A DNA stretch of 64,000 bases, taken from assembly GCA_021815205.1 (NCBI GenBank), contig JAKAHD010000001.1, positions 89,247-153,246 on the forward strand, read 5' to 3'. Positions 19,156-54,138 of this stretch are shown here, in pieces. The notes under the pieces were generated by a model. It was not told the DNA's origin. It did not search any database and was given only the letters and a program-made list of their open reading frames with translations. This DNA comes from a bacterium (GTDB lineage: Bacteria > Patescibacteriota > Minisyncoccia > UBA6257 > GWB1-50-10). The translations under genes were made by a program, and so were the position numbers. Position 1 is the stretch's first letter; each line of letters begins with the position of its first letter.

Positions 19156-21342
19156 CTATTCGCGCAGGCGGGGTTCGACGCGTTTAAGGAGCACGGCGTT
19201 CGTGGCCACAATAATGGAAGAAGCGGACATAAGGAGCGCGGCGATCTCCGGCCGCAAGGTCCAGCCAAGGGGGTGGTAGAACACTCCAGCAGCAACGGGA
19301 ATGGCCAGCATGTTATAAATCGCTGCCCAAAAAAGATTTTGCTTCATTTTAACGACCGTCGCCTTGCTCAAACGAATCGCGGCTACGATGTCGAATGGAT
19401 CAGATTTCATGAGGACGATGTTCCCGGTTTCAATCGCAACGTCGGTGCCCGCGCCGATCGCGATGCCGATATCGGCTTGCGCCAAGGCGGGCGCATCGTT
19501 CACGCCGTCGCCCACCATTGCTACGAACTTCTTCTCGTCCTGCAGTTTTTTTACGTAACTCGCCTTGTCCTCTGGGAGCACTTCCGCGAACACACGGTCG
19601 ATGCCGAGCTCTTTGCTCACCGCTTCCGCAACTTTTGCGTGGTCGCCGGTGATCATCACAACTTCGATGCCCATATTTTTCAATTCCTCGATGCTCTTTT
19701 TCGCGCTCGGGCGCACCGTATCCGCGACCGCGATGACGCCGGCAATCTTGCCATCAATGGCGAGCATGCTCAAGGTTTTGCCCTCTCCCGCGAGCCGGTC
19801 GATCGTCGCCCGGGCGGTTTCAAGATTTACACCGCTCGCATTCATAAGCTTCTCGTTGCCCGCAAGGATGCGTTTACCGTCGATCACGGCCTTTAAACCA
19901 TATCCAGCAACCGATTCGAACTGCGAGGACTTGACAAGCCGAATGTTTTTATTTGCCGCCTCATCGACGATGGCTTTTGCGATCGGGTGGTTCGAGCCGA
20001 TTTCGATGCTCGCCTCATATTTCAAAATTTCTTCTTCCTTCACGCTATTCAAGGGCGCGATATCAGTCACCTTCGGCTTGCCGAGGGTTAACGTTCCCGT
20101 CTTGTCCAGCACGATCGCCGTAAGACGGGAGGTATTTTCGAGTGTTGCTGCGTCCTTAATTAAAATGTTGTGCTTTGCGCCGATGCCGGTGCCGACTGCT
20201 ACCGCCGTCGGTGTGGCAAGCCCCAAGGCGTCGGGACATGCAATAACGACTGTTGCCACGGCAAAGGTTAACGCGGTAAGCAAGTTCGCACTGCCGATAA
20301 AATACCAACCGAGGAATGCGGCGATGCCGGAACCAATCGCAACAATCACCAGCCGTCCCGCCCAAATATCAGCAATGCGCTGACCGGGAGCTTTGGAATT
20401 CTGGGCGGTCTCCACCATTTTGATGATTTGGGCAAGCACGGTTTCCGAGCCGACTTGTGTGGCTTTGAATTGAATCGTGCCGGTGAGATTGACCGAACCG
20501 CCCACCACCTTGTCGCCGATCGTCTTTGAGATCGGTATAGATTCGCCCGTCACCAACGATTCGTCAATTGATGTTTCGCCCGAGGATATTTCGCCGTCCA
20601 CCGGAACCTTGTCGCCGGGTCGGAGTACCACACTATCGCCATGAATAATTTCCGCGCTCGGAATAGTAATCTCTTTGCCGTCCCGAATCACATTTGCTTT
20701 GGGCGGCACTAGATCAAAGAGGGCGCGCAAGGCATCCGAGGTGCCGCGGCGTGATTTCATCTCCATCCAGTGGCCAAACAAGACGAACGTAACCAAGAGC
20801 GCAGCGGCTTCAAAAAATGTTTCTTCGCCGCCGACGAGTGTGAGTAGAACGCTGAAAAGATAGGCCGCCAAAACGCCGGTCGCGATTAAGACCGCCATAT
20901 TAAGCTTCTTTGCTTTGAGCGAGTAGTAGGTGCCGGTAATAAAGATTGAACCAGTCCAAAAAACGATTGGTGTCGTGAGAATTAAGAGCAACCAATTGAT
21001 TGGAATGGGGGTTGGCAAATGTAACTTAAAAATAGTTGTGCCAACCGGCGAATACAGGAAAATAGGAACGGAGAGGAAAAGTGAAATGAAAAACCGGCGG
21101 CGCATATCCCTTTCCATCTGTTTGGCGATTGCTGGGTTGGTCATGGCCGCTTCATGATCGGTATGGCTCATTTTTTGCATGTTGTGACCAGTATGAGCAT
21201 CAACTTCCATCGGAATTAAATCCATACCACATCCGGGGCATTTGCCGGGCGCATTTTTAATGACTTCCGGGTGCATGGGGCAGGTGTAGAGAGTTTCTTT
21301 TGAATTGTGGTGATTATGGTTATTCATATTATTTATTTTCAA
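19156..21342 (-). CDS. copA: heavy-metal (Cu+-type) translocating P1B-type ATPase with a CPD transmembrane motif
   Basis: DKTGTLT, MVGDGVNDAPAL, TGES, and the Cu(I)-class TM signatures YN (AAIYNML) and MSASS. The TM6 motif reads IACPDALGLATP (codons tgt ccc gac), not CPC. N-terminal CPMHPEV...CPGCGM Cys4 metal-binding motif. Confidence 0.85.
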   Translation of the reverse strand: MKINNMNNHNHHNSKETLYTCPMHPEVIKNAPGKCPGCGMDLIPMEVDAHTGHNMQKMSHTDHEAAMTNPAIAKQMERDMRRRFFISLFLSVPIFLYSPVGTTIFKLHLPTPIPINWLLLILTTPIVFWTGSIFITGTYYSLKAKKLNMAVLIATGVLAAYLFSVLLTLVGGEETFFEAAALLVTFVLFGHWMEMKSRRGTSDALRALFDLVPPKANVIRDGKEITIPSAEIIHGDSVVLRPGDKVPVDGEISSGETSIDESLVTGESIPISKTIGDKVVGGSVNLTGTIQFKATQVGSETVLAQIIKMVETAQNSKAPGQRIADIWAGRLVIVAIGSGIAAFLGWYFIGSANLLTALTFAVATVVIACPDALGLATPTAVAVGTGIGAKHNILIKDAATLENTSRLTAIVLDKTGTLTLGKPKVTDIAPLNSVKEEEILKYEASIEIGSNHPIAKAIVDEAANKNIRLVKSSQFESVAGYGLKAVIDGKRILAGNEKLMNASGVNLETARATIDRLAGEGKTLSMLAIDGKIAGVIAVADTVRPSAKKSIEELKNMGIEVVMITGDHAKVAEAVSKELGIDRVFAEVLPEDKASYVKKLQDEKKFVAMVGDGVNDAPALAQADIGIAIGAGTDVAIETGNIVLMKSDPFDIVAAIRLSKATVVKMKQNLFWAAIYNMLAIPVAAGVFYHPLGWTLRPEIAALLMSASSIIVATNAVLLKRVEPRLRE

Positions 21343-21535
21343 TAGCTTGGTTTGTGATCTCTAAATTGCAACCGTGATGTTCTTTGCACCATGTTTCGCA
21401 CTTTTTCGCTTGCGTTTTCTCTTTATAATGCAAACCGCACTCTGGACACTTATGTGATTCCTCCTCGACTTTTTCGTTATGATTTTTGTGATCCATATAA
21501 TTTATATTTGTTTTACAGATTTTAACTTTTTCCAA
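21329..21535 (-). CDS. small zinc-ribbon protein (novel family) overlapping the copA start
   Basis: HKCPECGLHYKEKTQAKKCETWCKEHHGCNLEITNQA is homologous to the N-terminus of the 49345-51162 protein (YQCEACGFQY...KCEAWCKEHKSCNTEITAHA). Confidence 0.5.
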   Translation of the reverse strand: MEKVKICKTNINYMDHKNHNEKVEEESHKCPECGLHYKEKTQAKKCETWCKEHHGCNLEITNQAIENK

Positions 21536-22596: not shown

Positions 22597-23127
22597 TTAT
22601 TTCAAACCCCATTTGAAAGATCGTTCTGGAATGCCGCCAATATCTTTGATTTTAAGTTCGACGGTTTGAGGCATTGGTTGGATTGCGTTAAAAATCAACA
22701 CTCCCTCCCGATGGTGGCCGCCGGGCCCGGCACCCTCCCAAGACAGGGGCTTATACACGTTACCTTTATCATCGACCAGCGTCACGATTTGTACAGGATC
22801 TTGATCAAGTTCGACCGAATGTGTGTTCATACCAATATCAAATTTCCACTCCGTCGATTGTGATGAAAGATTAAGCGGCGTAACTACGACGGTAACATTT
22901 GCTTGCTCGTCAGTCCTCGTCTCCCATTTTTGTTTCACGCCTGATGTTGAAGAGTTGTCTTGGGGCGGACGAGAGCTGGGTTTAGGATTATACAAGACCA
23001 GAGAAACTCCCACGAACACCAATGCCAATACGGATATTGTGATTACTTTTTTATTCATCCCGTTAGGGGTTCCCATGATTGATTTTTTGAGATATTGGTA
23101 ATTGCGACTATTTTTCAATTTTTCCAC
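22597..23127 (-). CDS. hypothetical secreted/membrane-anchored protein
   Basis: The track start is GTG. The likely start is the internal ATG (MNKKVITISVLALVFVGVSLVLY signal anchor), preceded by 'cccctaacggg'. Confidence 0.45.
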   Translation of the reverse strand: MEKLKNSRNYQYLKKSIMGTPNGMNKKVITISVLALVFVGVSLVLYNPKPSSRPPQDNSSTSGVKQKWETRTDEQANVTVVVTPLNLSSQSTEWKFDIGMNTHSVELDQDPVQIVTLVDDKGNVYKPLSWEGAGPGGHHREGVLIFNAIQPMPQTVELKIKDIGGIPERSFKWGLK

Positions 23128-23603
23128 CCGTCAGAGTTTTTTAGGTTTCTCACAGAGGCGGATCCGTCTCGGGCGGAGCATTTGATGATTTTATTGCTGA
23201 TAAATAAAATGCCGAATATGTTAAACGCAAGACCGATCCAGAAAATCTTGACTTGATATTGAGCTACAAACGTAGCAAGCCCCGTAACTCCGAGAATGGG
23301 AACCACATTCACAAGATAATGAGCGCAACAGGAAATCATAGAGGCCGTCGAAGTCGTACCTGATACGCCGACAACCTTGCTCATGCCAAGCCCCCCATGC
23401 ACTAAGGCCCTAAGATGCTGATATAAACCGATCTGAACACCGAAACCAATCGCCAAGCTCGTGATGAAATACCAGTATGTGCCGAATTGATCTTGAGCAA
23501 AGCTCCATCCGGAGACGAGCGTCAAGACCGCGAAGTACACACCAAGCAAGATCGCACTTGCAAGTGTCCCATATAATATTGCCTTTGCGTAAGTGTTTGT
23601 CAT
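23115..23603 (-). CDS. hypothetical membrane protein
   Basis: 162 aa, about 4 TM helices. Confidence 0.4.
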   Translation of the reverse strand: MTNTYAKAILYGTLASAILLGVYFAVLTLVSGWSFAQDQFGTYWYFITSLAIGFGVQIGLYQHLRALVHGGLGMSKVVGVSGTTSTASMISCCAHYLVNVVPILGVTGLATFVAQYQVKIFWIGLAFNIFGILFISNKIIKCSARDGSASVRNLKNSDGWKN

Positions 23604-23605
23604 GG

Positions 23606-23917
23606 TTACTTTTTGATATAGCTTTCCGGGTCTTTCTCAAACTGACTCCGGCAATGATCCGAACAAAAGACATACTCCTTGTCTTTGTAGGTGAAGGTAA
23701 TGCTGTCGCTTGCCCGCATACCGCACACCGGATCCCGCAAAAGCTTCTTTGATGGGATTTTTTTGAATTTGTTGAAGAATGATGTAAGCATAGATTTATC
23801 CCCCACACCTCCTGAGGGGTTTAGTGCCTTAATGGCAACACCCATGGCCGGGATGATCTTTTTTGTTTTTGCCATCTTTATCTTCGCCCTCTCCATTGGT
23901 AACCGATTTTTCCTCAT
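23606..23917 (-). CDS. YHS (TRASH-like) domain protein; start uncertain
   Basis: DPVCGMRASDSITFTYKDKEYVFCSDHCRSQFEKDP is the YHS metal-binding signature. An internal start (MLTSFF..., about 23791) would remove the overlap with the next gene. Confidence 0.6.
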   Translation of the reverse strand: MRKNRLPMERAKIKMAKTKKIIPAMGVAIKALNPSGGVGDKSMLTSFFNKFKKIPSKKLLRDPVCGMRASDSITFTYKDKEYVFCSDHCRSQFEKDPESYIKK

Positions 23918-24158
23918 CGGAATGTTTATGCGATCGACCCATCATAAAGAAGTGGGCTATGACCATTATGGCAACTCCACCGATAATGACCCACGTCGGA
24001 GCCCCAAATGCTCTGCCTCCGAGTCCGAGAATGACGATTAACAATAAGGGCGCCACACAGCACACCATCATTGTCCACATCATCCAATTCCCGTCTTTTT
24101 GATCGTGATTATGCATGGCGATTAATAGTTTAATAATAACCAGATTATCAACCCTCAC
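23829..24158 (-). CDS. DUF2933-like small membrane protein with C-terminal HGCCH
   Basis: VCCVAPLLLIVILGLGG helix pair and C-terminal HPGHGCCH. Confidence 0.4.
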   Translation of the reverse strand: MRVDNLVIIKLLIAMHNHDQKDGNWMMWTMMVCCVAPLLLIVILGLGGRAFGAPTWVIIGGVAIMVIAHFFMMGRSHKHSDEEKSVTNGEGEDKDGKNKKDHPGHGCCH

Positions 24159-24366: not shown

Positions 24367-24648
24367 TTATTTATTGGAAAGGGTATATATCCTGATCAAT
24401 TCTTTAATTGCTTTTTGATCTTCACTTTTGCTCTGCATTTGATGTTTGACATGCGAGCGCAAGTGATTTTCAAGAAGAAAGCCGTCAAGACTCTTAAGCG
24501 ACCTTTGAATGGAGAGGGATTGTTCCAACAGCGTTGGGCAATACACCTCTTTCTCAATGGCCTTAATAAGACCATCAAACTGACCGCGAAGAATCCTCGC
24601 CCGATGGAGGGCGCGTCCTTTTATTTTCTGATCTACTCCGTGTTGCAT
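24367..24648 (-). CDS. CsoR/RcnR/FrmR-family metal-sensing transcriptional repressor
   Basis: 93 aa all-helical DUF156-type sequence. Ligand fingerprint positions read His3-Cys37-His62-His66 (MQH..., VYCPTLL, ENHLRSHV). Confidence 0.7.
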   Translation of the reverse strand: MQHGVDQKIKGRALHRARILRGQFDGLIKAIEKEVYCPTLLEQSLSIQRSLKSLDGFLLENHLRSHVKHQMQSKSEDQKAIKELIRIYTLSNK

Positions 24649-24735: not shown

Positions 24736-25710
24736 TTATATGCCACACCCGTCCTGCTGGCGCTGTGGCGCTGGGGCTGTTCCACCTGTATCTACACCGC
24801 ATCCGCTCCCGCCTCTCTCTTGTCGCGTTTGGGGGACTTGAGCGGCAATTCTTGCAAATCCGGAACCGCTTGAATATTCCGCGCTAAGAAGCATTTGCGG
24901 AGTTACACTTTTTACATCAATACCTTTTATTTTTAGGTATTGTGCAATGGTCTCGTATTGATCCGGGAACCAGGCTCTGTTGGCCGTTATGGCCGCATTC
25001 CACATCTCTTCCCCTGTTCTCCCTTGCGATGCCAGGTATTCAAGAAGCCCGAGCATTGCCATGCCGTGATTGCAATCCGGGAAATACGTTGAATTATTGC
25101 AGCAGGGCCGGTAAATTCCTTTCGCGATCTTCTCCACAAGCGCCTGCTGATCTGACGTGAGAGGGGCCAAGGCGTGCTTGTCGTAGTGATCCATCACCGA
25201 CCCCGTAGTAACCGTCCAACCGCCGACCGATGCCATGTTGGTCGGTCCGCCGTAGCGCACGTCCATAATCGGGCCGGTCTCCAAAACCGGGTTTTTATTT
25301 GCCAGACCATAAGCCCAGAGCAAGTTCAGCTCTGTCACTTGAGAAAGCTTGGCGGGATTGATAGTGCCATTCGCAATCAAGGCGGCAAGCATTTTCTTTT
25401 CTGTTTCTAAGGGCAGGATTTTTCCTCCGTCAACCAGGGTTGCCTGGCCGTTTTGCGAAGCCGCATTTTCTGCCGTCTGCGTCTCCGGGGAGCGATTCTC
25501 GTTGTTATAGATCATAGCTCCCGCAAGCATGGCTCCCGCAATGACAATGGCAATCGGGATCATATATCTGTTGCCGAACTCTTTAGGTTTCTCCTGTCTT
25601 GATCCCTCCTGTATCTCGTATTCCGTTTCGTGTTCCGTCCCATTAGAAATTTTCGTATCGGTGAGATTTTCATTTTTTTTCTTATCCATATTTTTATACC
25701 CGTTACCCAT
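24736..25710 (-). CDS. secreted/membrane-anchored protein carrying a novel Cys-rich domain (YRPCCNNSTYFPDCNHG ... GGSGCGV C-terminus)
   Basis: TM/signal MIPIAIVIAGAMLAGAMIY, then an about 250-aa domain homologous to the C-terminal domain of the 49345-51162 protein. Start may be the internal MDKKK. Confidence 0.6.
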   Translation of the reverse strand: MGNGYKNMDKKKNENLTDTKISNGTEHETEYEIQEGSRQEKPKEFGNRYMIPIAIVIAGAMLAGAMIYNNENRSPETQTAENAASQNGQATLVDGGKILPLETEKKMLAALIANGTINPAKLSQVTELNLLWAYGLANKNPVLETGPIMDVRYGGPTNMASVGGWTVTTGSVMDHYDKHALAPLTSDQQALVEKIAKGIYRPCCNNSTYFPDCNHGMAMLGLLEYLASQGRTGEEMWNAAITANRAWFPDQYETIAQYLKIKGIDVKSVTPQMLLSAEYSSGSGFARIAAQVPQTRQERGGSGCGVDTGGTAPAPQRQQDGCGI

Positions 25711-25795: not shown

Positions 25796-26041
25796 TTATT
25801 TCTTACAACAATCCGTTAACTTGCTAATAATTTCTTCAATTGACTTTTTTTCGAGAGAACGCTTAGAAGATACGGAAAATCCAACCGCTCTCAACTTCCT
25901 TATTGTTTCTCTTACCCCCAACGATCTCACCTCGTTGAGAATAAGGCGACGCTGTTCGCATTTTTCACAGTGAGGTATATGAAGCGCCTTCGCAATCTTC
26001 CTCACCGTATCGCCGAGTCTAAGTTGCCGTTTCTTGCCCAT
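25796..26041 (-). CDS. small hypothetical protein with CxxC and C-terminal CC
   Basis: 81 aa: HCEKCEQRR...DCCKK. Basic, possibly nucleic-acid or metal binding. Confidence 0.35.
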   Translation of the reverse strand: MGKKRQLRLGDTVRKIAKALHIPHCEKCEQRRLILNEVRSLGVRETIRKLRAVGFSVSSKRSLEKKSIEEIISKLTDCCKK

Positions 26042-26042
26042 G

Positions 26043-26708
26043 TTATTGTTTGCTTAATTCCTGAATTTTACCGAAGAGCATGTCATTCGCTATTGCCATG
26101 TTCGGGTCATCGAATACGAATCTCACCATCCCCTCTTTATCAACCACGATATAGGTATGGCCTGGCAGTGAGCCGCGATGCATTGAGGAATTTGTAGTCA
26201 ACATGCCAAGCTCTCTCGAGGCGTTCGCACCTCCGTCAAACATGGTGGTTGCCTTCGCAAGCTCCGGCATCTTGGCTATTGCCGTCTGCCAGTCTCTCGC
26301 GGAATCGGTTACAACGGATATTGCTTGAATCTCTCCGCTCTTGAATCTTTGGTCGCTCCCGAATGATGCCATCTGATTCCAGCACGCCGGATAACACATA
26401 AGGCCCTCGTTGAAGAACAGAACGGTGTATTTGCCTCTGAAGTCTGCCGAGGTGTATATTTTTCCATCCTTATCAGTCAGTTGGATATTTGGCAATGGTT
26501 TTCCTATAAGGGAATTCAGTTGCTCGGTATTGGGGGCCCCCGGCGATCCATGCATGGTATCAGTGGCGGATGTTTGATTGGCGTTTTGCGGCGAACTCTT
26601 CATAAGGAGATATCCCAAGCTCAGCGCCACGACCGCAATGATGGTGATCGTGAGCCAAGGAGTTTTTTGATTGTAGTTATTTTTATTCATCCCGTTAGAA
26701 GTTTTCAT
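26043..26708 (-). CDS. secreted thioredoxin-fold protein with CxxxC motif (Sco/redoxin-like)
   Basis: Signal anchor. FRGKYTVLFFNEGLMCYPAC resembles the Trx-fold active-site region, with CxxxC spacing as in Sco1/SenC. The likely start MNKNNYNQKTPW... is preceded by 'acttctaacggg'. Confidence 0.5.
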   Translation of the reverse strand: MKTSNGMNKNNYNQKTPWLTITIIAVVALSLGYLLMKSSPQNANQTSATDTMHGSPGAPNTEQLNSLIGKPLPNIQLTDKDGKIYTSADFRGKYTVLFFNEGLMCYPACWNQMASFGSDQRFKSGEIQAISVVTDSARDWQTAIAKMPELAKATTMFDGGANASRELGMLTTNSSMHRGSLPGHTYIVVDKEGMVRFVFDDPNMAIANDMLFGKIQELSKQ

Positions 26709-26796: not shown

Positions 26797-27648
26797 CTAT
26801 TGTCTTTTATATTGTTTAATGAACACATACGAAACGTACGCGACTATTCCAATGAAGAGAAGCGCCCAAACGTATTCCGGAATCAACGTTACCAATCCGT
26901 TGATTGCGTCCAAGAACTTGGCATTCCACAGATTTATTTGCAATTGATACTCCGAATGTACGAATAACGTATTGCTGAACGCCAAATACGTTATGTAGCC
27001 GCCCATCAAGAGAAATATCAATCCGGAAATGAGCTCCGAGACGGTAATGTGCCAGCTCCAGCTCCCGATTCTCATCCCCACCGTTTTCTTGGCGTTCGTG
27101 AATCGTTCTGTCAGATTTACTTTGTCGAGGAACGCCGCAATGATAAAGAGCGGCAGGGTCATACCTACGACATAGGCCAAGGTATACAACGCGCCCCACA
27201 GAATGGTGCCGCTTGCAACGGACAGCGCGAGCACACCGGCGAGCACCGGCGCACAGCAGGTAGTGGCAATAGCCGAGAAGATACCGAGAATATAGATCGA
27301 GGACACATGCCGCTTCATGCCGTCACGAACGGAGGTCGGGGTGGTGAACTTCTTGCCAAAGAGCATTGAGAGTCCCAACGCCATCAGGAAAATTCCGCCA
27401 ACGGTGAAAATTATGTTGTGGTATTTACTGAACAACTGTGCCAAGAAAGAGGCTCCAAGTCCGATTGGCAAGAAGACCGTCGCTACTCCCAAGAAGAAGA
27501 CAAAAGTCATGAAGAATATTTTGTATTTTTCTTTGAAGATGTTTCCCAAGTAGGACGGTAAGAGGACGGTAATACAGCATGGGGCAAAGAGCGCGGCAAC
27601 CCCCGCCACGAACGCCGCTATGAGTGATGTCCCTACAAGTAATTCCAT
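26797..27648 (-). CDS. DsbD/CcdA-like transmembrane thiol-disulfide transfer protein
   Basis: 283 aa, about 8 TM helices, paired membrane cysteines (FAPCCITVLLPSYLG and IATTCCAPVLAG). Start codon directly preceded by 'gcgacctgcttctaacgga'. Confidence 0.5.
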   Translation of the reverse strand: MELLVGTSLIAAFVAGVAALFAPCCITVLLPSYLGNIFKEKYKIFFMTFVFFLGVATVFLPIGLGASFLAQLFSKYHNIIFTVGGIFLMALGLSMLFGKKFTTPTSVRDGMKRHVSSIYILGIFSAIATTCCAPVLAGVLALSVASGTILWGALYTLAYVVGMTLPLFIIAAFLDKVNLTERFTNAKKTVGMRIGSWSWHITVSELISGLIFLLMGGYITYLAFSNTLFVHSEYQLQINLWNAKFLDAINGLVTLIPEYVWALLFIGIVAYVSYVFIKQYKRQ

Positions 27649-27885: not shown

Positions 27886-28296
27886 TTAGTGCAAAGAGGG
27901 ACTAAGCTCAAATAGAGAAAGCCACGAGGTAATTTTCTGCTCACCGCCTAAAGAGTGAAGCGTCCCCTCTCGCCGCCGCTCTTGCAATAGTTCCGGTTTC
28001 GGAAGCAGTACATTTTTATACCATAGAACTATCGAAACCGAAGCAAGAAGCAGGGACACGATCAATGAAAGCCAGCCGGAGATCGGCGGCACCACGGTTG
28101 TCGTAAGCGTTTGAAAAGCGGAGACATGATGCAAAGTCATGTCCATGATGCTTGCGGGACAGGCCGTTCCGTCTATGGCCGAGGCAATACAACCGTCGCT
28201 TGAGCCACCCATCATCGCATGCTCAAAAAGCGAAAAACCAAAAACACCTATTCCGACAAAGCTCATTATTAGGAGTAGTGACGCAAGATATTTCAT
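27886..28296 (-). CDS. hypothetical membrane/secreted Cys-containing protein (first gene of second metal operon)
   Basis: 136 aa. N-terminal TM, central Cys/His cluster (DGCIASAIDGTACPASIMDMTLHH), C-terminal TM. Confidence 0.4.
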   Translation of the reverse strand: MKYLASLLLIMSFVGIGVFGFSLFEHAMMGGSSDGCIASAIDGTACPASIMDMTLHHVSAFQTLTTTVVPPISGWLSLIVSLLLASVSIVLWYKNVLLPKPELLQERRREGTLHSLGGEQKITSWLSLFELSPSLH

Positions 28297-28312
28297 GGGA
28301 TTACAAGATGAA

Positions 28313-28368
28313 TATATACCCCCATACCCTATTGGTCAAGTTAAACCATTGTGGATAACAACAAGGCA
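28313..28368 (-). promoter_or_regulatory. candidate promoter/operator of second metal operon (paralogous to 24691-24735)
   Basis: 'atatacccccataccctattggtcaa-N12-ttgtggataa'. In gene orientation TTGACC...gggggTATATA then ATG 17 nt later. Confidence 0.45.
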
Positions 28369-28689: not shown

Positions 28690-28770
28690 CGAAATGTAAA
28701 CCCCCACACCATAAGCATAAGCCTATGGTGTGGGGGTAAACCGCCGTCAGTTGCTTGACGGCGGAGATTT
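28690..28770 (-). terminator. tandem hairpins downstream of the Cys-repeat protein gene
   Basis: 17-bp stem 'taaacccccacaccata...tatggtgtgggggttta' and 10-bp GC stem 'ccgccgtcag-ttgc-ttgacggcgg' with adjacent T-run. Confidence 0.45.
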
Positions 28771-48728: not shown

Positions 48729-49361
48729 TTGTCTTCGCCTCGTTCGCTGACAAAAACTTCTAACGGAGTGAATAAAAAATTACCAACCGCAATTATTATC
48801 CTTGCTGGTATCGTTTTGGGATACCTCTTTATCTCAAGTTCGCAACAGTTCAAGTTTGGACAACCGAAAGAACAAACACACAGCGGAATAGTAAATGAAG
48901 CATTGGCGGCCAAGTTTGATTACTTAAGCAAAAACGGAAATTCATCTTGTTCAGCAGTGTTTCGCGATTCTATCGCCTCAAAATCAGATGGCGCCCGACT
49001 ACAAGGTTCATGCTGCAGCCCCATGAGCATGCACCGCTATCGCGAGCAAGTCGAAGCGCTTAAAAGATACAGCAATATTAAAGAAATCCCTCCCGACCCT
49101 TACGACATTCAGGCCGGACTTGCCAAAATACTCATGTCCCATTATGGCGACGAGCTCTCGCCGGAACAGCAAAAGGTCTACGACTACGCCATGCAAAACT
49201 CAAGCGAGAAAGGGCCGTGCTGCTGCAAATGCTGGCGGTGGAATACGTATGGCGGTTTAGCAAAAATACTTATTACAAGATATAGCTTCACTGGCGAGCA
49301 AGTAACCGAAGTGTGGAATTTATCCGACGGCTGCGGCGGCGACAGTGAGCATCATCACTAA
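48729..49361 (+). CDS. Cys-rich hypothetical secreted protein
   Basis: Track start is TTG. A GTG preceded by 'cttctaacgga' (VNKKLPTAIIILAGIVLGYLF) is a plausible start. Cys clusters SSCSAV, GSCCSPMSMH, GPCCCKCWRW, DGCGGDSEHHH. Overlaps next gene by 17 nt. Confidence 0.45.
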   Translation: MSSPRSLTKTSNGVNKKLPTAIIILAGIVLGYLFISSSQQFKFGQPKEQTHSGIVNEALAAKFDYLSKNGNSSCSAVFRDSIASKSDGARLQGSCCSPMSMHRYREQVEALKRYSNIKEIPPDPYDIQAGLAKILMSHYGDELSPEQQKVYDYAMQNSSEKGPCCCKCWRWNTYGGLAKILITRYSFTGEQVTEVWNLSDGCGGDSEHHH

Positions 49362-51162
49362 TATGACAAAGGTGATTCAAAAAGAAGACAAAAAATTATA
49401 TCAATGTGAAGCGTGCGGCTTCCAGTATACAGATGATTCGACCTCGCTCATCACAGGGAAAGAGTGGGCGGAAAAATGCGAAGCGTGGTGCAAAGAACAC
49501 AAGAGTTGCAATACTGAGATAACTGCGCATGCCGTTCCACAAGACAGCGAACCTGAAAAAAGCGAGCTTAACGCCGTTCAAAGCAAAACATCAGAGGCGT
49601 CTGCCGATCCGCTTGCGGGTAGAACTTCTAACAGGGTCAAGCCGGAAGACGTTAAGTTTCTGGCCCGTTCGATAAGCTCAAAGCCGGCTTTGAGTCGTAT
49701 CGAAGGGATGACAAGATTTTTCTACGGTCTTGTCGGCATCGCCTCATCCCTTGCCTTTTTTCTTATCTTGTACTGGGCATTACGACTTGATTCAACAATC
49801 ACGAACATAATCGCCAACACCTACAGCACCCCGCTCTACTTCTGGCCGTACGTTACTCTGACGCTCGGCGCGATTGTGCTCTTTGGCGTCAATGTTTCTC
49901 TCCTTGTATATCGCTGGAGAAAGTTCGGACCGCCACGATTCAAAACAGAAGCCGGCGGCGGAGCAGGAACACTTTTCGGCATTGCGGCCTCTGCGTGTCC
50001 TGTTTGCGGGTCAACCCTGCTTTCGGTAATTGGCATTGCCGGAGGGCTTGCCGCATTTCCGCTTGGCGGGCTTGAACTTAAAGCATTGTCTTTTGGATTT
50101 ATGGTATTGCCAATTTGGCTAATAAGAAAGGACTTGTCCGCCAAGGCCTCAGTGTCGGCGGGAGCCTCGGCACAGGCGGGCGAAAGCGGCATATGTCCTC
50201 TCCCAAGAGACCACCGCTTCAAAGAATCTGATCGGCCGTGGCTTTTAGCGCTTCTCGCCTTGGTAATTGTTTTGTCGCTTATTAGCTGGAATTGGCTTAA
50301 GACCGAGCCGATTATCGCCAAAGCCCTTGCTCAAAACCGCATCTTGGACTCAAGCTACAACGCAAACATTTCGGCGAAAGGAGATAAACTCATTAATGAA
50401 GTAGTTGCGCAGGTTCTACCGGAGAAAGGGTTCCAAAGTAAAATCGCGCTCGGCGATAGCGTCCTGAAATTGGTGCAAAACGGCGTGATTGATCGAGATA
50501 AGTTCCTCGCGATTTATGAAGATCGCGGCGGTCTGCCCGATGCGCTAAAAAATGTGCTTGATAGCCCCTCGACAAAACCAATTCTCCTTACTCGCGAGAA
50601 TGCAAACTACTATATAAATCTCATGTGGCCGTTGGGGCTTGCAAACTACATGTCGTCTAACAAGAAAAGCCCTATTAGTGGTAAGTCGCTCTTTCACTTT
50701 GCTTCGACTGGCGGCTGGAACTTGGGAAAAGAAGAAAACGGCGGCGCGTACTTCAACAAATTTAAGATTGCTAAACTAACACCGGAGCAAGAGGCGCTGG
50801 TCACGAAAATCGCCCAAAGTACCTATCGCCCCTGCTGTAATAACTCAACGTTCTTTCAGGATTGCAATCATGGCTCGGCTCTCTTGGGACTTTTGCAACT
50901 CGGCGCGTCCCAAGGTTTAACTGAAGATGAACTCTATCGTGAGGCGCTTGCATTCAATTCGTTTTGGTTTCCTCAAAACTACGTTCAGACCGCGCTCTAT
51001 TTCAAAGCGACGAAAGGCACTGATTGGAATGAGATTGATCCAAAAATGGTGATGGGAAAAGATTTTTCTTCCGCGAGCGGTTGGTATACCAACATTGACG
51101 CGGAAGTGAAACGGCTCGGCCTTGTTCCACAGCAAGAAGGCGGCGCAGGTTGCGGAGTATAA
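49345..51162 (+). CDS. fusion protein: N-terminal zinc ribbon, 4-TM region with membrane CPVCG, C-terminal novel 'PCCNNSTFFQDCNHG...GCGV' domain
   Basis: N-terminus homologous to the 21329-21535 protein. C-terminal about 300 aa homologous to the 24736-25710 protein (shared LW..GLAN, GGW, YRPCCNNST[YF]F.DCNHG.A.LGLL, SQG, WFP, GG.GCGV). Confidence 0.6.
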   Translation: MSIITNMTKVIQKEDKKLYQCEACGFQYTDDSTSLITGKEWAEKCEAWCKEHKSCNTEITAHAVPQDSEPEKSELNAVQSKTSEASADPLAGRTSNRVKPEDVKFLARSISSKPALSRIEGMTRFFYGLVGIASSLAFFLILYWALRLDSTITNIIANTYSTPLYFWPYVTLTLGAIVLFGVNVSLLVYRWRKFGPPRFKTEAGGGAGTLFGIAASACPVCGSTLLSVIGIAGGLAAFPLGGLELKALSFGFMVLPIWLIRKDLSAKASVSAGASAQAGESGICPLPRDHRFKESDRPWLLALLALVIVLSLISWNWLKTEPIIAKALAQNRILDSSYNANISAKGDKLINEVVAQVLPEKGFQSKIALGDSVLKLVQNGVIDRDKFLAIYEDRGGLPDALKNVLDSPSTKPILLTRENANYYINLMWPLGLANYMSSNKKSPISGKSLFHFASTGGWNLGKEENGGAYFNKFKIAKLTPEQEALVTKIAQSTYRPCCNNSTFFQDCNHGSALLGLLQLGASQGLTEDELYREALAFNSFWFPQNYVQTALYFKATKGTDWNEIDPKMVMGKDFSSASGWYTNIDAEVKRLGLVPQQEGGAGCGV

Positions 51163-51828: not shown

Positions 51829-54138
51829 CTATTTTTTGAGAAGTTCTTTGAATAGATGCGGCGGGATGCGGACGTGTGCGCGTGCCTTGAGGCGCTCCTT
51901 CCCTTTTTTCTGCTTCTGCCACAGCTTCATTTTTCTCGTCCGGTCCCCTCCGTTTTTCCCAAAGTTGCCGAGTTCTTTCCGGAGCGCGGGGATGTCTTCG
52001 CGTGCGATCACTTTTCCGTGGTCCTTCGCCTGAATCGGCTGAGCGAACTGCTGTTGCGGGAGCGTCTTCTTCAGGCGCTCGACGAGCTCACGCGCTTCGT
52101 ATTGCAGCGTGCTCTTCGGAAAGAAGCGCGAGAGCCCCGGGATGATTTCTCCCGCAATCGCGATGTCGATCTTTACGATGTCGGCCTTCATGTAGTCCGC
52201 GAGCTCATAACTGAACGAAGCGTAGCCGGCGGTCGCGGATTTCAACTGGTCGTCAAAATCACTTACGAGTTCCGCAAGCGGCATGATTGCCTTGATTTCT
52301 GTTTGGTTTTGGAACGTCTCCGTCATGATGTTCGAGAATCTGAATTTGTTCTGGAGCGGGTAGATATTATTCAGAAATTCCGGCGAGGTGAGGATTACAA
52401 TCTTCACCATCGGTTCCCAAATCGCTTCGTATTCTTCAGGGATTTCTTCGGGCTTCACAATCTCGATCCACCCCCCTCTAGTTTTCACTTTATAAAGCAC
52501 CGAAGGAAATGTACTCACGGTCGTAACATGGAATTCGCGCCGGAGGCGTTCCGCGGTAATCTCGAAGTGAAGGTGCCCCAGGAATCCGACCTTAAATCCC
52601 CGCCCCAAGACCTCGTTCTGGTCCGGTTCGATATGGAGTGCCGAGTCATTGAGCCGCAGTTTATCGAAGCTTCGCTTCAGAAGATCATACTCGTCGTTGT
52701 CCTCCGGGTAAAAGGACACGAACACAACCGGTTGCGGCTCTTGGTAGCCGTGCAGCGCAAACGTTTTTGGATTCTGGCATTTGGATTTTGAGCTTACTAT
52801 CGTGTCCCCTATCTTCACGAGCGCAATATCCTTGATGCCGGTCGCGATGTACCCGATCTCTCCCGTTCCGAGTTTCTGTGTCGCGGTCAAGGGCGGAGCA
52901 AAAAAACCAACTTCCTTTATCTTCGAGGAAGCGCCGGATGCCGCAAGCGTAATAATGTCCGTTCCGTTTACCGTGCCTTCGAAGACGCGCACCGACGCGA
53001 TCACCCCCTTGTGATCGTCGTAGAAGGAATCGAAAATGAGTGCCCGCGCTGGGGCCGCCGATACTCGCTGATTTTGAGCTGATGCACGCTGATCCGTTTC
53101 TATCTCGACCGGTGAAGGTATTCGTTCAATGATTACTCGAAGCAGATCAGAAACCCCTTCTCCCGTTTTTGCGGAGACCATCATTATTTCATCGTCGGAT
53201 ATGTTCAGAAGTTCCGCGACCTCGTGCCGGATGCGCGCAAGCCCCTCCGTGTCTCCCCGCGCTTCGAGAATATCGATCTTATTTACCGCGCCGATGATCG
53301 TAAGTCCCGCACTGCGCGCCAAGTGAAGGTTTGCAAGGGTCTGTGCCTGGATTCCTTGGGTTGCGTCCACAAGGAGAATACCGCCCTCGACGGCCGCCAA
53401 GGCGCGCGACACCTCGTACGAGAAATCGGAGTGCCCCGGAGTATCAATCAAGTTGAGGATATATTCCTCAACTTGCGCGGAAGGTCGCGGAAGGGACGCG
53501 GAATCGCGCGGAATTTCACGGGCTGTGTCGTATACGACTCTTTGTATGTCGAGAGTCTTCGTTCCGAAATTAATGAGTAGCGCAAGTTTGTAGTCTGACC
53601 CCTTGAGATAGCTCCATAGCTGTTCTGTCTGTGGGCGGCCTATTTCCGGTAATGCTTTCAGCTCGATAAGTATTTTCTCTTCAATTATAAAATCCGGTTG
53701 GTAGGAACCGATTTTCTTGCCGTCGTAAAAAATTCCAATGTTTTTTTCGCTTTCGAACCGCAGGTTTCTCTTCTTGAATTCTTCTGCCAGGGCATTATGA
53801 TAGACGATCTCTTTATGTCCTAGACCTAGCCTTTTTCTTACCTCGAAAGCGGCGCCGCGTATTTCATAGGTAATGGTTTCGTATAGTAATTTACTTTCTG
53901 CGTCATTCCGCGTATCATTCTGCGTCATTCTGCGGTGAGGATGATAACGCATCCTCACAGGGGCCATTTTAATGGTGATCCCCCGCTCCCGTTCGAGTTC
54001 AAGCTGATCAAGATATTGTTCCTGCATGTGGCGCGTATCCACCGTGCCCGTAATTTCAAGGAACCGATCCGCGAGGGTTGACTTCCCGTGATCGATATGG
54101 GCGATGATGCAGAAATTTCTGATGTAGACTTCGTTCAT
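51829..54138 (-). CDS. lepA: translation elongation factor 4 (LepA) carrying an in-frame about 158-aa GxxExxY/PD-(D/E)XK-domain insertion in the G domain
   Basis: NFCIIAHIDHGKSTL, ERERGITIK, DTPGH, NKID and LepA C-terminal domain are all present. 769 aa versus about 600 typical. The extra segment lies between ITIKMAPVRMRY and EEYILNLIDTPGH. Confidence 0.85.
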   Translation of the reverse strand: MNEVYIRNFCIIAHIDHGKSTLADRFLEITGTVDTRHMQEQYLDQLELERERGITIKMAPVRMRYHPHRRMTQNDTRNDAESKLLYETITYEIRGAAFEVRKRLGLGHKEIVYHNALAEEFKKRNLRFESEKNIGIFYDGKKIGSYQPDFIIEEKILIELKALPEIGRPQTEQLWSYLKGSDYKLALLINFGTKTLDIQRVVYDTAREIPRDSASLPRPSAQVEEYILNLIDTPGHSDFSYEVSRALAAVEGGILLVDATQGIQAQTLANLHLARSAGLTIIGAVNKIDILEARGDTEGLARIRHEVAELLNISDDEIMMVSAKTGEGVSDLLRVIIERIPSPVEIETDQRASAQNQRVSAAPARALIFDSFYDDHKGVIASVRVFEGTVNGTDIITLAASGASSKIKEVGFFAPPLTATQKLGTGEIGYIATGIKDIALVKIGDTIVSSKSKCQNPKTFALHGYQEPQPVVFVSFYPEDNDEYDLLKRSFDKLRLNDSALHIEPDQNEVLGRGFKVGFLGHLHFEITAERLRREFHVTTVSTFPSVLYKVKTRGGWIEIVKPEEIPEEYEAIWEPMVKIVILTSPEFLNNIYPLQNKFRFSNIMTETFQNQTEIKAIMPLAELVSDFDDQLKSATAGYASFSYELADYMKADIVKIDIAIAGEIIPGLSRFFPKSTLQYEARELVERLKKTLPQQQFAQPIQAKDHGKVIAREDIPALRKELGNFGKNGGDRTRKMKLWQKQKKGKERLKARAHVRIPPHLFKELLKK
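53470..53960 (-). mobile_element. inserted element inside lepA encoding a GxxExxY (23S rRNA IVS-protein-like) domain, with inverted-repeat ends
   Basis: Insert encodes ...YEIRGAAFEVRKRLGLGHKEIVYHNALAEEFKKRNLRFESEKNIGIFYDGKKIGSYQPDFIIEEKILIELKAL. Low-coordinate end has 'cgcggaa' x4 (53475-53520). High-coordinate end has 'tcattc(c/t)gcg' x3 plus an 8-bp hairpin gtgaggat/atcctcac at 53935-53958. The ends are mutually inverted (cgcggaat / attccgcg). Confidence 0.45.

Follow-up and report, generated by a model that had tools for sequence, protein, structure and literature searches.

The stretch of DNA analysed here, a window of 64,000 nucleotides from a patescibacterial contig (JAKAHD010000001.1, GenBank assembly GCA_021815205.1, positions 89,247 to 153,246), encodes the same cysteine-rich domain twice, and the question it raises is what this domain does and with which partners. 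The domain forms the C-terminal part of two proteins, here called A (positions 24736..25710 of the window, minus strand; an open reading frame (ORF) of 324 amino acids (aa)) and B (49345..51162, plus strand; 605 aa). An earlier note on this DNA had described a duplicated module in which a zinc ribbon, a membrane thiol element and the Cys-rich domain work together, split in one locus and fused in the other. The strongest and most general signal that emerges from comparative analysis is the coupling of the domain to the membrane thiol electron carrier CcdA inside a metal-efflux island; this CcdA cassette, which the earlier note had missed, is the real conserved partner set of the domain. The second signal is a predicted CcmH-like scaffold with four invariant cysteines and one invariant histidine.

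The C-terminal regions of A and B are homologous, as had been claimed: BLASTP aligns them with 43% identity across 187 aa (A128-306 against B424-605, E 4e-36), and family alignments widen the shared region to approximately A90-306 (24793..25443, minus strand) and B345-605 (50377..51159, plus strand, with the C-terminal end GGAGCGV), i.e. about 215 aa. Among 120 domain representatives with pairwise identity of at most 50%, R201, P202, C203, C204, N206, D212, C213, N214, H215, G216 and C304 (numbering of A) are 100% conserved, and W132, G135, A160, G164, W165 and W247 are conserved in at least 96%. The shared motifs noticed in two proteins persist on realignment and are real and strongly constrained. 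The invariant tail cysteine C304 (24799..24801, minus strand) belongs to a GGxGCG motif and is always found 10-16 residues past the last helix, in a Gly/Ser/Pro-rich tail that has low pLDDT (predicted local distance difference test) values in the AlphaFold model and is probably flexible; a second tail cysteine, C322, is restricted to the A subfamily. Because of the lengths of homologues, translation probably starts a few codons 3' of the listed positions, at M8 in A, at M7 (49363) in B and at M14 in the free-standing zinc-ribbon protein described below. Protein A consists of a short Lys-rich cytoplasmic N-terminus, a transmembrane (TM) anchor (aa 49-68), the Cys-rich domain and the Gly-rich tail; in B, a Cys5 zinc ribbon, a linker, a four-TM module with a CPxC motif and a fifth TM helix precede the domain. 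By the positive-inside rule and the helix count, and given a cytoplasmic ribbon, the domain is predicted to be extracytoplasmic in both proteins, in agreement with its initial description as periplasmic.

The family is large and has escaped annotation. Among clusters at 90% identity, a search with protein A yields 4835 relatives at E<=1e-3, every one of them hypothetical or unnamed, and those with a named source are all labelled Patescibacteria or Parcubacteria. The domain profile matches 515 of 1.84 billion representatives at 50% identity (228 of these clusters at E<=1e-30), and at least 598 stretches carrying the domain are found in contigs sampled at one genome per species; the best 80 of these come throughout from metagenome-assembled genomes (MAGs) of the candidate phyla radiation. 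The family also occurs outside that radiation, as one member (P0505), with a Tat-like signal peptide, comes from a high-GC Casimicrobiaceae MAG. Another protein, P0470, is a fusion of a signal peptide, the domain and a BNR propeller. Proteins A and B, the ribbon and CC210, a neighbour of B, yield nothing above threshold in Pfam and NCBIfam, and 74 members of the family alignment compared with Pfam at E up to 10 show only weak matches to HTH_60 and to DUF7128 (the latter in 15 of the 74, best E 2e-4), with no match to CcmH (PF03918). The profile of these 74 members has no match among PDB sequences, and literature searches on CcmH in Patescibacteria, on DUF1573 with CcdA and on Patescibacteria with copper found no description of the family or the cassette. 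The earlier remark that the motifs were not recognised from any characterised family therefore stands for the Pfam, NCBIfam and PDB sequence searches, none of which gives a confident match, and needs amending for the core fold, which is CcmH-like.

Gene linkage was assessed with iterated hidden Markov models (HMMs) built from the window proteins and scanned over 80 species-level loci of the A type; the counts that follow refer to genes sharing the strand of the domain gene. CcdA is encoded in 75 of these loci, always on that strand and mostly just upstream of the domain; p136, the first gene of the cassette in the window, is found in 70, CopA in 66 (within 10 kb) and a CsoR-family repressor in 42. 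The slot that a redoxin holds in the window is taken in most loci by an Ig-like DUF1573 protein (56/80; 'TSCMCT...GPFGM.GHG', Pfam E 3.5e-10), the redoxin occurring in 18 loci and a membrane thioredoxin-like protein in 10, so that 74 loci contain at least one of the three. Proteins with a Cys-Cys tail, ending in ..CC or ..DCC(D/K)(E/K), are encoded in 52. The usual order is p136, DUF1573 or redoxin, CcdA, the Cys-Cys-tail protein (in most loci) and the domain, and the block is flanked by CopA, CsoR or the gene pair p162-p176. The Cys-Cys-tail proteins, whose genes lie between those of CcdA and the domain, are cytoplasmic or membrane proteins. They include a family of cytoplasmic helical proteins of about 165-180 aa with 'GETWC..KH' and a C-terminal ..KL.DCC[DK]E (L171 2879-3376 and L020 5714-6226 are examples), which corresponds to no Pfam family and shows very strong conservation that reaches as far as a betaproteobacterial MAG (E 5e-81). 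In this high-GC genome (locus L171), a p176 homologue heads the cassette and is followed by DUF1573, CcdA, the DCC-tail protein and the domain, with HMM E-values from 1e-39 to 1e-81.

In the window, the cassette is part of a minus-strand run (28296-19156), annotated by Pfam, in the order p136, CcdA, TlpA-like redoxin, p81, A, CsoR-family repressor, p70, p109, YHS protein, p162, p176, DoxX-like protein, lycopene-cyclase-domain protein, zinc ribbon and CopA. The p136 protein (27886..28296) has two TM helices and an outward loop C-x9-C...H, in which C36 is conserved in 100% and C46 in 98%. CcdA (26797..27648; DsbD_TM, Pfam E 3e-12) retains C24 and C131, 100% conserved in 74 homologues, and carries extra cysteines that form vicinal pairs and are conserved in just 29%. 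It is followed by a membrane-anchored redoxin of the TlpA/ResA type (26043..26708; AhpC-TSA/Redoxin in Pfam) and by p81 (25796..26041), which at 81 aa is a shortened Cys-Cys-tail protein that contains HCEKC and ends in ..KLTDCCKK. On the other side of A are the metal-sensing repressor of the CsoR/RcnR family (24367..24648; Pfam E 6e-15) and p109 (23829..24158), a small protein without a Pfam match that has two TM helices, 'VCCVAP' in the first of them and 'GHGCCH' at the C-terminus; its layout, with two vicinal Cys pairs, is like that of MerF, and it is present in 18 of the 80 loci. The conserved pair p162-p176 (22597..23603) is often located directly upstream of CopA (24/80 loci); p162 has a TM segment 'SCCAHYL' with the CC and the His 100% conserved, and p176 (THS..WEG..GGHHR) has a weak DUF5643 match. 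The run ends with the CopA-like P1B-type ATPase (19156..21342), assigned by Pfam and TM motifs, with an N-terminal HMBD and the motifs CPD, YN and MSASS. Upstream, a strong, GC-rich terminator-like hairpin of 17 bp (28700..28737, minus strand) separates a 596-aa gene from the start of the cassette, and a promoter-like site precedes p136 (28311..28339, minus strand), the number of such sites in this region being at chance level relative to shuffled sequence.

The likely nature of the domain itself was suggested by its predicted structure. AlphaFold2 models A confidently (pLDDT mostly >85 over aa 90-295), with a core of three helices (186-198, 214-228 and 233-247; core aa 186-247, 24970..25155, minus strand) and with the invariant RPCC-x-N-x5-DCNHG motif (aa 201-216) in the loop between helices 1 and 2. 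CcmH, an atypical thiol oxidoreductase anchored by one TM helix, is likewise a three-helix bundle, with LRCPKC in the helix 1-helix 2 loop and the second cysteine as the exposed nucleophile (PMC3884852). When 120 domain representatives were compared with 120 CcmH sequences by hhalign, a local alignment of 53 columns was obtained (pairwise P 0.001, probability 20%), with a score of 23.1 versus a maximum of 18.8 and a median of 10.4 in column-shuffled controls (n=100); with earlier, low-diversity alignments the result had been not significant or just a trivial CPxC match. The register of this alignment is that of the structural comparison, the second Cys of the domain falling on the second Cys of the CcmH CxxC, DCN pairing with the DSN of CcmH and QG-T--E with EGKS--E. 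The domain is thus probably CcmH-like in fold and distantly related to CcmH; as far as profile searches tell, it is not a member of PF03918, and the LRCxxC dithiol is not kept, its place being taken by R-P-C-C together with the invariant C213, H215 and C304.

From the fold, the motif and the gene linkage, we infer a function that includes redox activity, Cu(I) binding, the direction in which transfer runs and the metal concerned; the homology, conservation, predicted fold similarity, topology and linkage on which it builds are established. By analogy with the copper-induced DsbD-type thiol systems, in which Scs proteins exchange disulfides and bind Cu(I) (PMC10907172, PMC8900818), the domain would be a thiol/Cu(I) centre on the outer face that CcdA keeps reduced and that is linked to copper defence, and we give this reading an even chance of being correct. 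The domain would then be a membrane-tethered thiol centre whose scaffold, a three-helix bundle like that of CcmH, has an additional subdomain at its N-terminus; its putative reactive groups are the vicinal C203-C204, the residues C213 and H215 where helix 2 begins, and C304 on the flexible Gly-rich tail. It would stand at the end of a dedicated reducing cassette that is based on CcdA and placed in a metal-efflux island with a CsoR-family repressor, a CopA-type ATPase and YHS proteins. Electrons from the cytoplasm would cross the membrane via the two CcdA cysteines and be handed on by the redoxin or the DUF1573 partner, so that the cysteines of the domain stay reduced. The reduced Cys3-His site, possibly with the tail Cys, might bind Cu(I) released by CopA at the membrane surface and/or resolve copper-oxidised thiols, C304 acting as a mobile residue for capture or resolution. 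Protein B is a paralogue that joins the domain to a four-TM module, with a predicted cytoplasm-facing Cys3 site (CPxC plus C-P), and to the Cys5 ribbon.

Several observations weigh against this interpretation. The domain structure is a prediction, the hhalign probability for CcmH is no more than 20%, PF03918 is not matched by A, B or the 74 family members at E up to 10, the domain HMM misses the CcmH of Escherichia coli in a HMMER search of that protein together with the window ORFs, and Foldseek against the PDB returns no match. The CcmH CxxC is replaced by a vicinal CC, the disulfide of which would be strained, and a partner with a thioredoxin fold is present in just 28 of the 80 loci. The B locus of the window has neither CcdA nor CopA nearby. 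The remaining points concern the metal. The repressor of the window has the fingerprint H3-C37-H62-H66 and is RcnR-like, H-C-H-H being the pattern of RcnR (Ni/Co) and x-C-H-C that of CsoR; across related loci, repressors with C-H-H outnumber those with C-H-C (39 vs 20). The window ATPase has CPD instead of CPC in TM4, and the ATPases of related loci have CPC in 40 cases, CPH in 33 and CPD in 16. The window ATPase keeps YN and MSASS, both typical of Cu(I) pumps, and copper is the most likely metal of the island.

Much of the same evidence could be read without any metal site, with the domain being purely a protein-thiol reductase or isomerase that attacks disulfides of surface proteins (e.g. 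those mis-oxidised under copper or oxidative stress) and is recycled by CcdA and the redoxin, the His and the third Cys tuning its reactivity. The CcmH-like fold and motif position, the obligate CcdA linkage and the alignment of C204 with the solvent-exposed second Cys of CcmH all fit such an enzyme. However, four invariant cysteines and an invariant histidine exceed the needs of a dithiol reductase, the vicinal CC is a poor redox pair, and the tight linkage is to metal-efflux genes and not to a candidate substrate, which makes this explanation rather improbable.

Protein B brings in a further membrane component. Its membrane module (aa 113-319; 49681..50301, plus strand) consists of five helices (113-148, 163-194, 207-237, 242-273 and 294-319) with positively charged loops after TM2 (RWRKFGPPRFK) and TM4 (RKDLSAK). 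The CPVCG-bearing membrane helix pointed out in the earlier note corresponds to TM3, where A-C-P-x-C-G-S is invariant in 69 B-type proteins; on the predicted topology, both cysteines (C218 and C221) are located in the inner half of the helix, and an invariant C284-P lies in the cytoplasmic loop after TM4. The module has no homologue in locus 1 (phmmer against the window) and no informative structural neighbour. Free-standing homologues of about 185 aa, with 'G[IM]GCAACGS' in TM3 and a C-terminal 'P.VC', are encoded in other genomes after a DsbA-like/Thioredoxin_4 gene (L001, L095, L111, L122, L139, L162), L001 being an A-type locus. At least 312 B-type proteins exist, the ribbon being missing from about 40% of those listed. 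In other genomes, the B-type gene order is p136-like, CC210, x178 (HWH...HTH), B and x230, and p136, the redoxin and CcdA are sometimes located directly upstream of the B-type locus (L100, L111). CC210 (48729..49361, plus strand), a membrane-anchored protein in which cysteines are densely clustered (CCSPMSMH, PCCCKCWRW and a C-terminal DGCGG), is a conserved upstream neighbour of B-type genes (L005, L007, L095, L102, L111). Tentatively, and with low confidence, B and the free-standing 'GCAACGS' proteins could be viewed as a new class of trans-membrane thiol conduit, running from the Cys5 ribbon via the cytoplasm-facing Cys3 site in a four-TM bundle to the CcmH-like ectodomain and passing electrons or Cu(I), and the cassette with p136, DUF1573 and the Cys-Cys-tail protein as an unrecognised multi-step envelope thiol/copper relay common to Patescibacteria and some Proteobacteria; such a class may be unrelated to DsbD/CcdA, DsbB or VKOR.

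The zinc ribbon turns out to have a wider range of partners. The ribbon of B (aa 7-66; 49363..49542, plus strand; pLDDT >90) and the free-standing Cys5 protein of 68 aa (21329..21535, minus strand) are homologous, as the earlier note had held (40% identity of the 68-aa ORF to B residues 12-64, E 1e-13); it was also right that this small gene abuts or overlaps the start of copA, the overlap with the copA ORF (19156-21342) being 14 nt on the longest-ORF reading. The five invariant cysteines have the spacing C-x2-C-x12-C-x3-C-x5-C, and the best Pfam scores are below the gathering thresholds (PaaD ribbon, 16.2 bits with a cut-off of 27; DUF7128, 13.3 with a cut-off of 25.7). When ribbon forms were tallied in 80 metagenome loci, the ribbon was found to be free-standing in 67, in at least 16 of them directly upstream of CopA, and to be fused to the B module in about nine, to one TM helix and the domain in two (L141, L158), to GrpE-like proteins in three and to a small MerT/F-like membrane protein with 'GLCCTPL' in one (L129). 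It is present in just five of the 80 A-type loci, and in the window the free ribbon is 3.2 kb and ten genes from A and coupled to copA. The ribbon is thus a mobile cytoplasmic Cys module that most often accompanies CopA, and it does not belong specifically to the domain as a subunit; being mainly a free-standing CopA partner elsewhere, it is therefore probably a cytoplasmic metal- or thiol-binding adaptor. The split-versus-fused scheme is only partly right for the window, where locus 1 is not a split B (its ribbon goes with copA, and it has no homologue of the four-TM CPxC module), although split and other fused forms do exist elsewhere. The companion proposal that the modules work together gains from the L141 and L158 fusions, from P0362, in which a membrane Cys-Cys-tail protein is fused to the domain, and from the free module in L001. 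The GrpE-like fusions carry the ribbon at the N-terminus (L128 1184-1921, L135 1221-1793, L138 5938-6642), which hints at a link to chaperone control. Extracytoplasmic proteins recur near CopA or the ribbon in related loci, namely multicopper oxidase, beta-propellers of the BNR/YncE type and an 'HWH...HTH' protein of about 178 aa (examples are L001 14554-16158, L125 6147-7097 and L002 10880-11986).

The abundance of paired or vicinal cysteines on every component, including the DCCKK of p81, the 'VCCVAP' and GCCH of p109, the 'SCCAHYL' of p162 and the CC of the window CcdA, could also be taken as a sign of a Mer-like relay, with the domain as one of its stations, in which a thiophilic metal ion (Cu(I), Ag(I), Hg(II) or Cd(II)) is passed across the membrane by ligand exchange, from the outer domain to membrane Cys pairs (those of the CPxC module of B or of the CcdA-like protein), then to paired cysteines in the cytoplasm and on to the ribbon or the Cys-Cys-tail protein, B being the analogue of MerP, MerT and NmerA in one chain. 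The ribbon fusion to the MerT/F-like protein in L129 and the position of the three conserved membrane-module cysteines of B, which face the cytoplasm beside the ribbon, agree with this. Yet, by Pfam, none of the island proteins is homologous to MerT, MerP, MerF or MerC and the operon encodes neither MerA nor MerR, the vicinal-pair cysteines of CcdA are conserved in 29% versus 100% for the canonical electron-transfer cysteines, and the import of a toxic metal beside an efflux pump needs a cytoplasmic detoxifier, of which none is seen; we consider such a relay unlikely. Still less probable is a non-catalytic role for the domain as a cross-linked or Zn-stabilised surface module, e.g. the ectodomain of a sensor or adhesin or the input for a two-component system at the B locus. 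The BNR-propeller fusion in P0470 and the response regulator and histidine kinase pair that adjoins B divergently in the window would suit it, but a histidine kinase or response regulator is found in just two of the 80 loci, and the absolutely conserved polar cluster of Cys, His, Asp, Asn and Arg, together with the obligate CcdA linkage, points to chemistry. That the domain is a bona fide CcmH orthologue of cytochrome c maturation is hardly credible in spite of its fold, motif position and neighbours (CcdA and a CcmG-like redoxin), as the window has no WWD protein of the CcmF/CcsA type and its sole CxxCH protein is UvrA-like, the labelled families in the 80 neighbourhoods are only metal- and thiol-related (the unlabelled ORFs were not scanned for Ccm genes), LRCxxC is not conserved, and Patescibacteria, with their tiny genomes, generally lack respiratory chains.

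The preferred reading of the domain as a thiol/Cu(I) centre that CcdA keeps reduced gains its significance from the fact that about 600 species-level genomes keep a Cys-rich cassette beside a copper pump despite their tiny size and the lack of a respiratory chain; retention in such reduced genomes suggests that the cassette is probably important at the cell surface or on the host cell. If the reading is correct, the CcmH fold would have a role beyond the maturation of cytochromes, testable roles would emerge for DUF1573 and for at least four families that lack annotation (p136, the Cys-Cys-tail proteins, the Cys5 ribbon and the membrane module of the B type), the ribbon would be a candidate copper chaperone for CopA in organisms without CopZ, and the cassette would represent a Gram-positive-type counterpart of the Scs system. 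The gene fusions offer a clean set for dissecting the partnerships of the components. Apart from this system, the window contains a LepA/EF4-like GTPase ORF (51829-54138, minus strand; 769 aa) with an apparent insertion of about 160 aa after the start of the G domain (LLYETITYEIRGAAFEVRKRLGLGHKEIVYHNALAEEF), which resembles a domain of the GxxExxY/PD-(D/E)xK type.

Among the known systems with which the cassette can be compared, MerP/MerT/MerF share the distribution of paired cysteines outside, in and beneath the membrane and the vicinal CC pairs, and differ in the lack of homology and in that MerA and MerR were not found in the operon. The order of B, a four-TM Cys-bearing core, an extra TM helix and an extracytoplasmic predicted redox domain, is similar to that of bacterial VKOR-thioredoxin fusions and full-length DsbD; B nevertheless matches VKOR, DsbB and DsbD neither in sequence nor in structure, and its conserved membrane cysteines are placed toward the cytoplasmic side and not toward the outer side. 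In TlpA-ScoI/CoxB and CueP, Cys2-His or Cys3 copper sites are kept reduced by a thioredoxin fed by CcdA or DsbD, and the parallel is an outer-face Cys/His site that needs a dedicated reductant before copper binding, although the folds are unrelated and these proteins serve copper delivery to enzymes or SodCII, and not an efflux island.

The domain can also be compared with CcmH/CycL/NrfF (PF03918). Both have a three-helix bundle (predicted in our case) in which the Cys motif occupies the helix 1-helix 2 loop, and both are tethered by a single TM helix to the external side of the membrane; the two align at the Arg that precedes the Cys, at the D-[SC]-N that opens helix 2 and at the G-x-[ST]-x-x-E turn, and the genes lie beside those for CcdA and a CcmG/TlpA-like redoxin, so that the supply of reducing power, by which CcmH depends on CcdA and a CcmG-like thioredoxin, has its counterpart here at the level of gene linkage alone. 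Unlike CcmH, the domain has a vicinal CC for CxxC with an additional invariant Cys, His and tail Cys, an N-terminal subdomain of about 100 aa, a C-terminal extension and an anchor that is N-terminal instead of C-terminal; it has no significant HMMER match to the CcmH family, and its context is metal efflux, with no heme-lyase partners or c-type cytochromes in the window or among the families labelled in the 80 neighbourhoods. ScsABCD (suppressor of copper sensitivity, to which related envelope thiol systems driven by DsbD/ScsB can be added) differs in that its clients have a thioredoxin or DsbA fold, whereas the terminal client here is CcmH-like and not thioredoxin-like, and in that DUF1573, p136 and the Cys-Cys-tail proteins have no Scs counterpart. 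In both systems, a carrier of the DsbD/CcdA family (here a DsbD_TM protein with both catalytic cysteines) appears to feed extracytoplasmic Cys proteins in a copper-stress context, and the cassette as a whole parallels the alpha (Ig-like), beta (TM) and gamma (thioredoxin) domains of DsbD.

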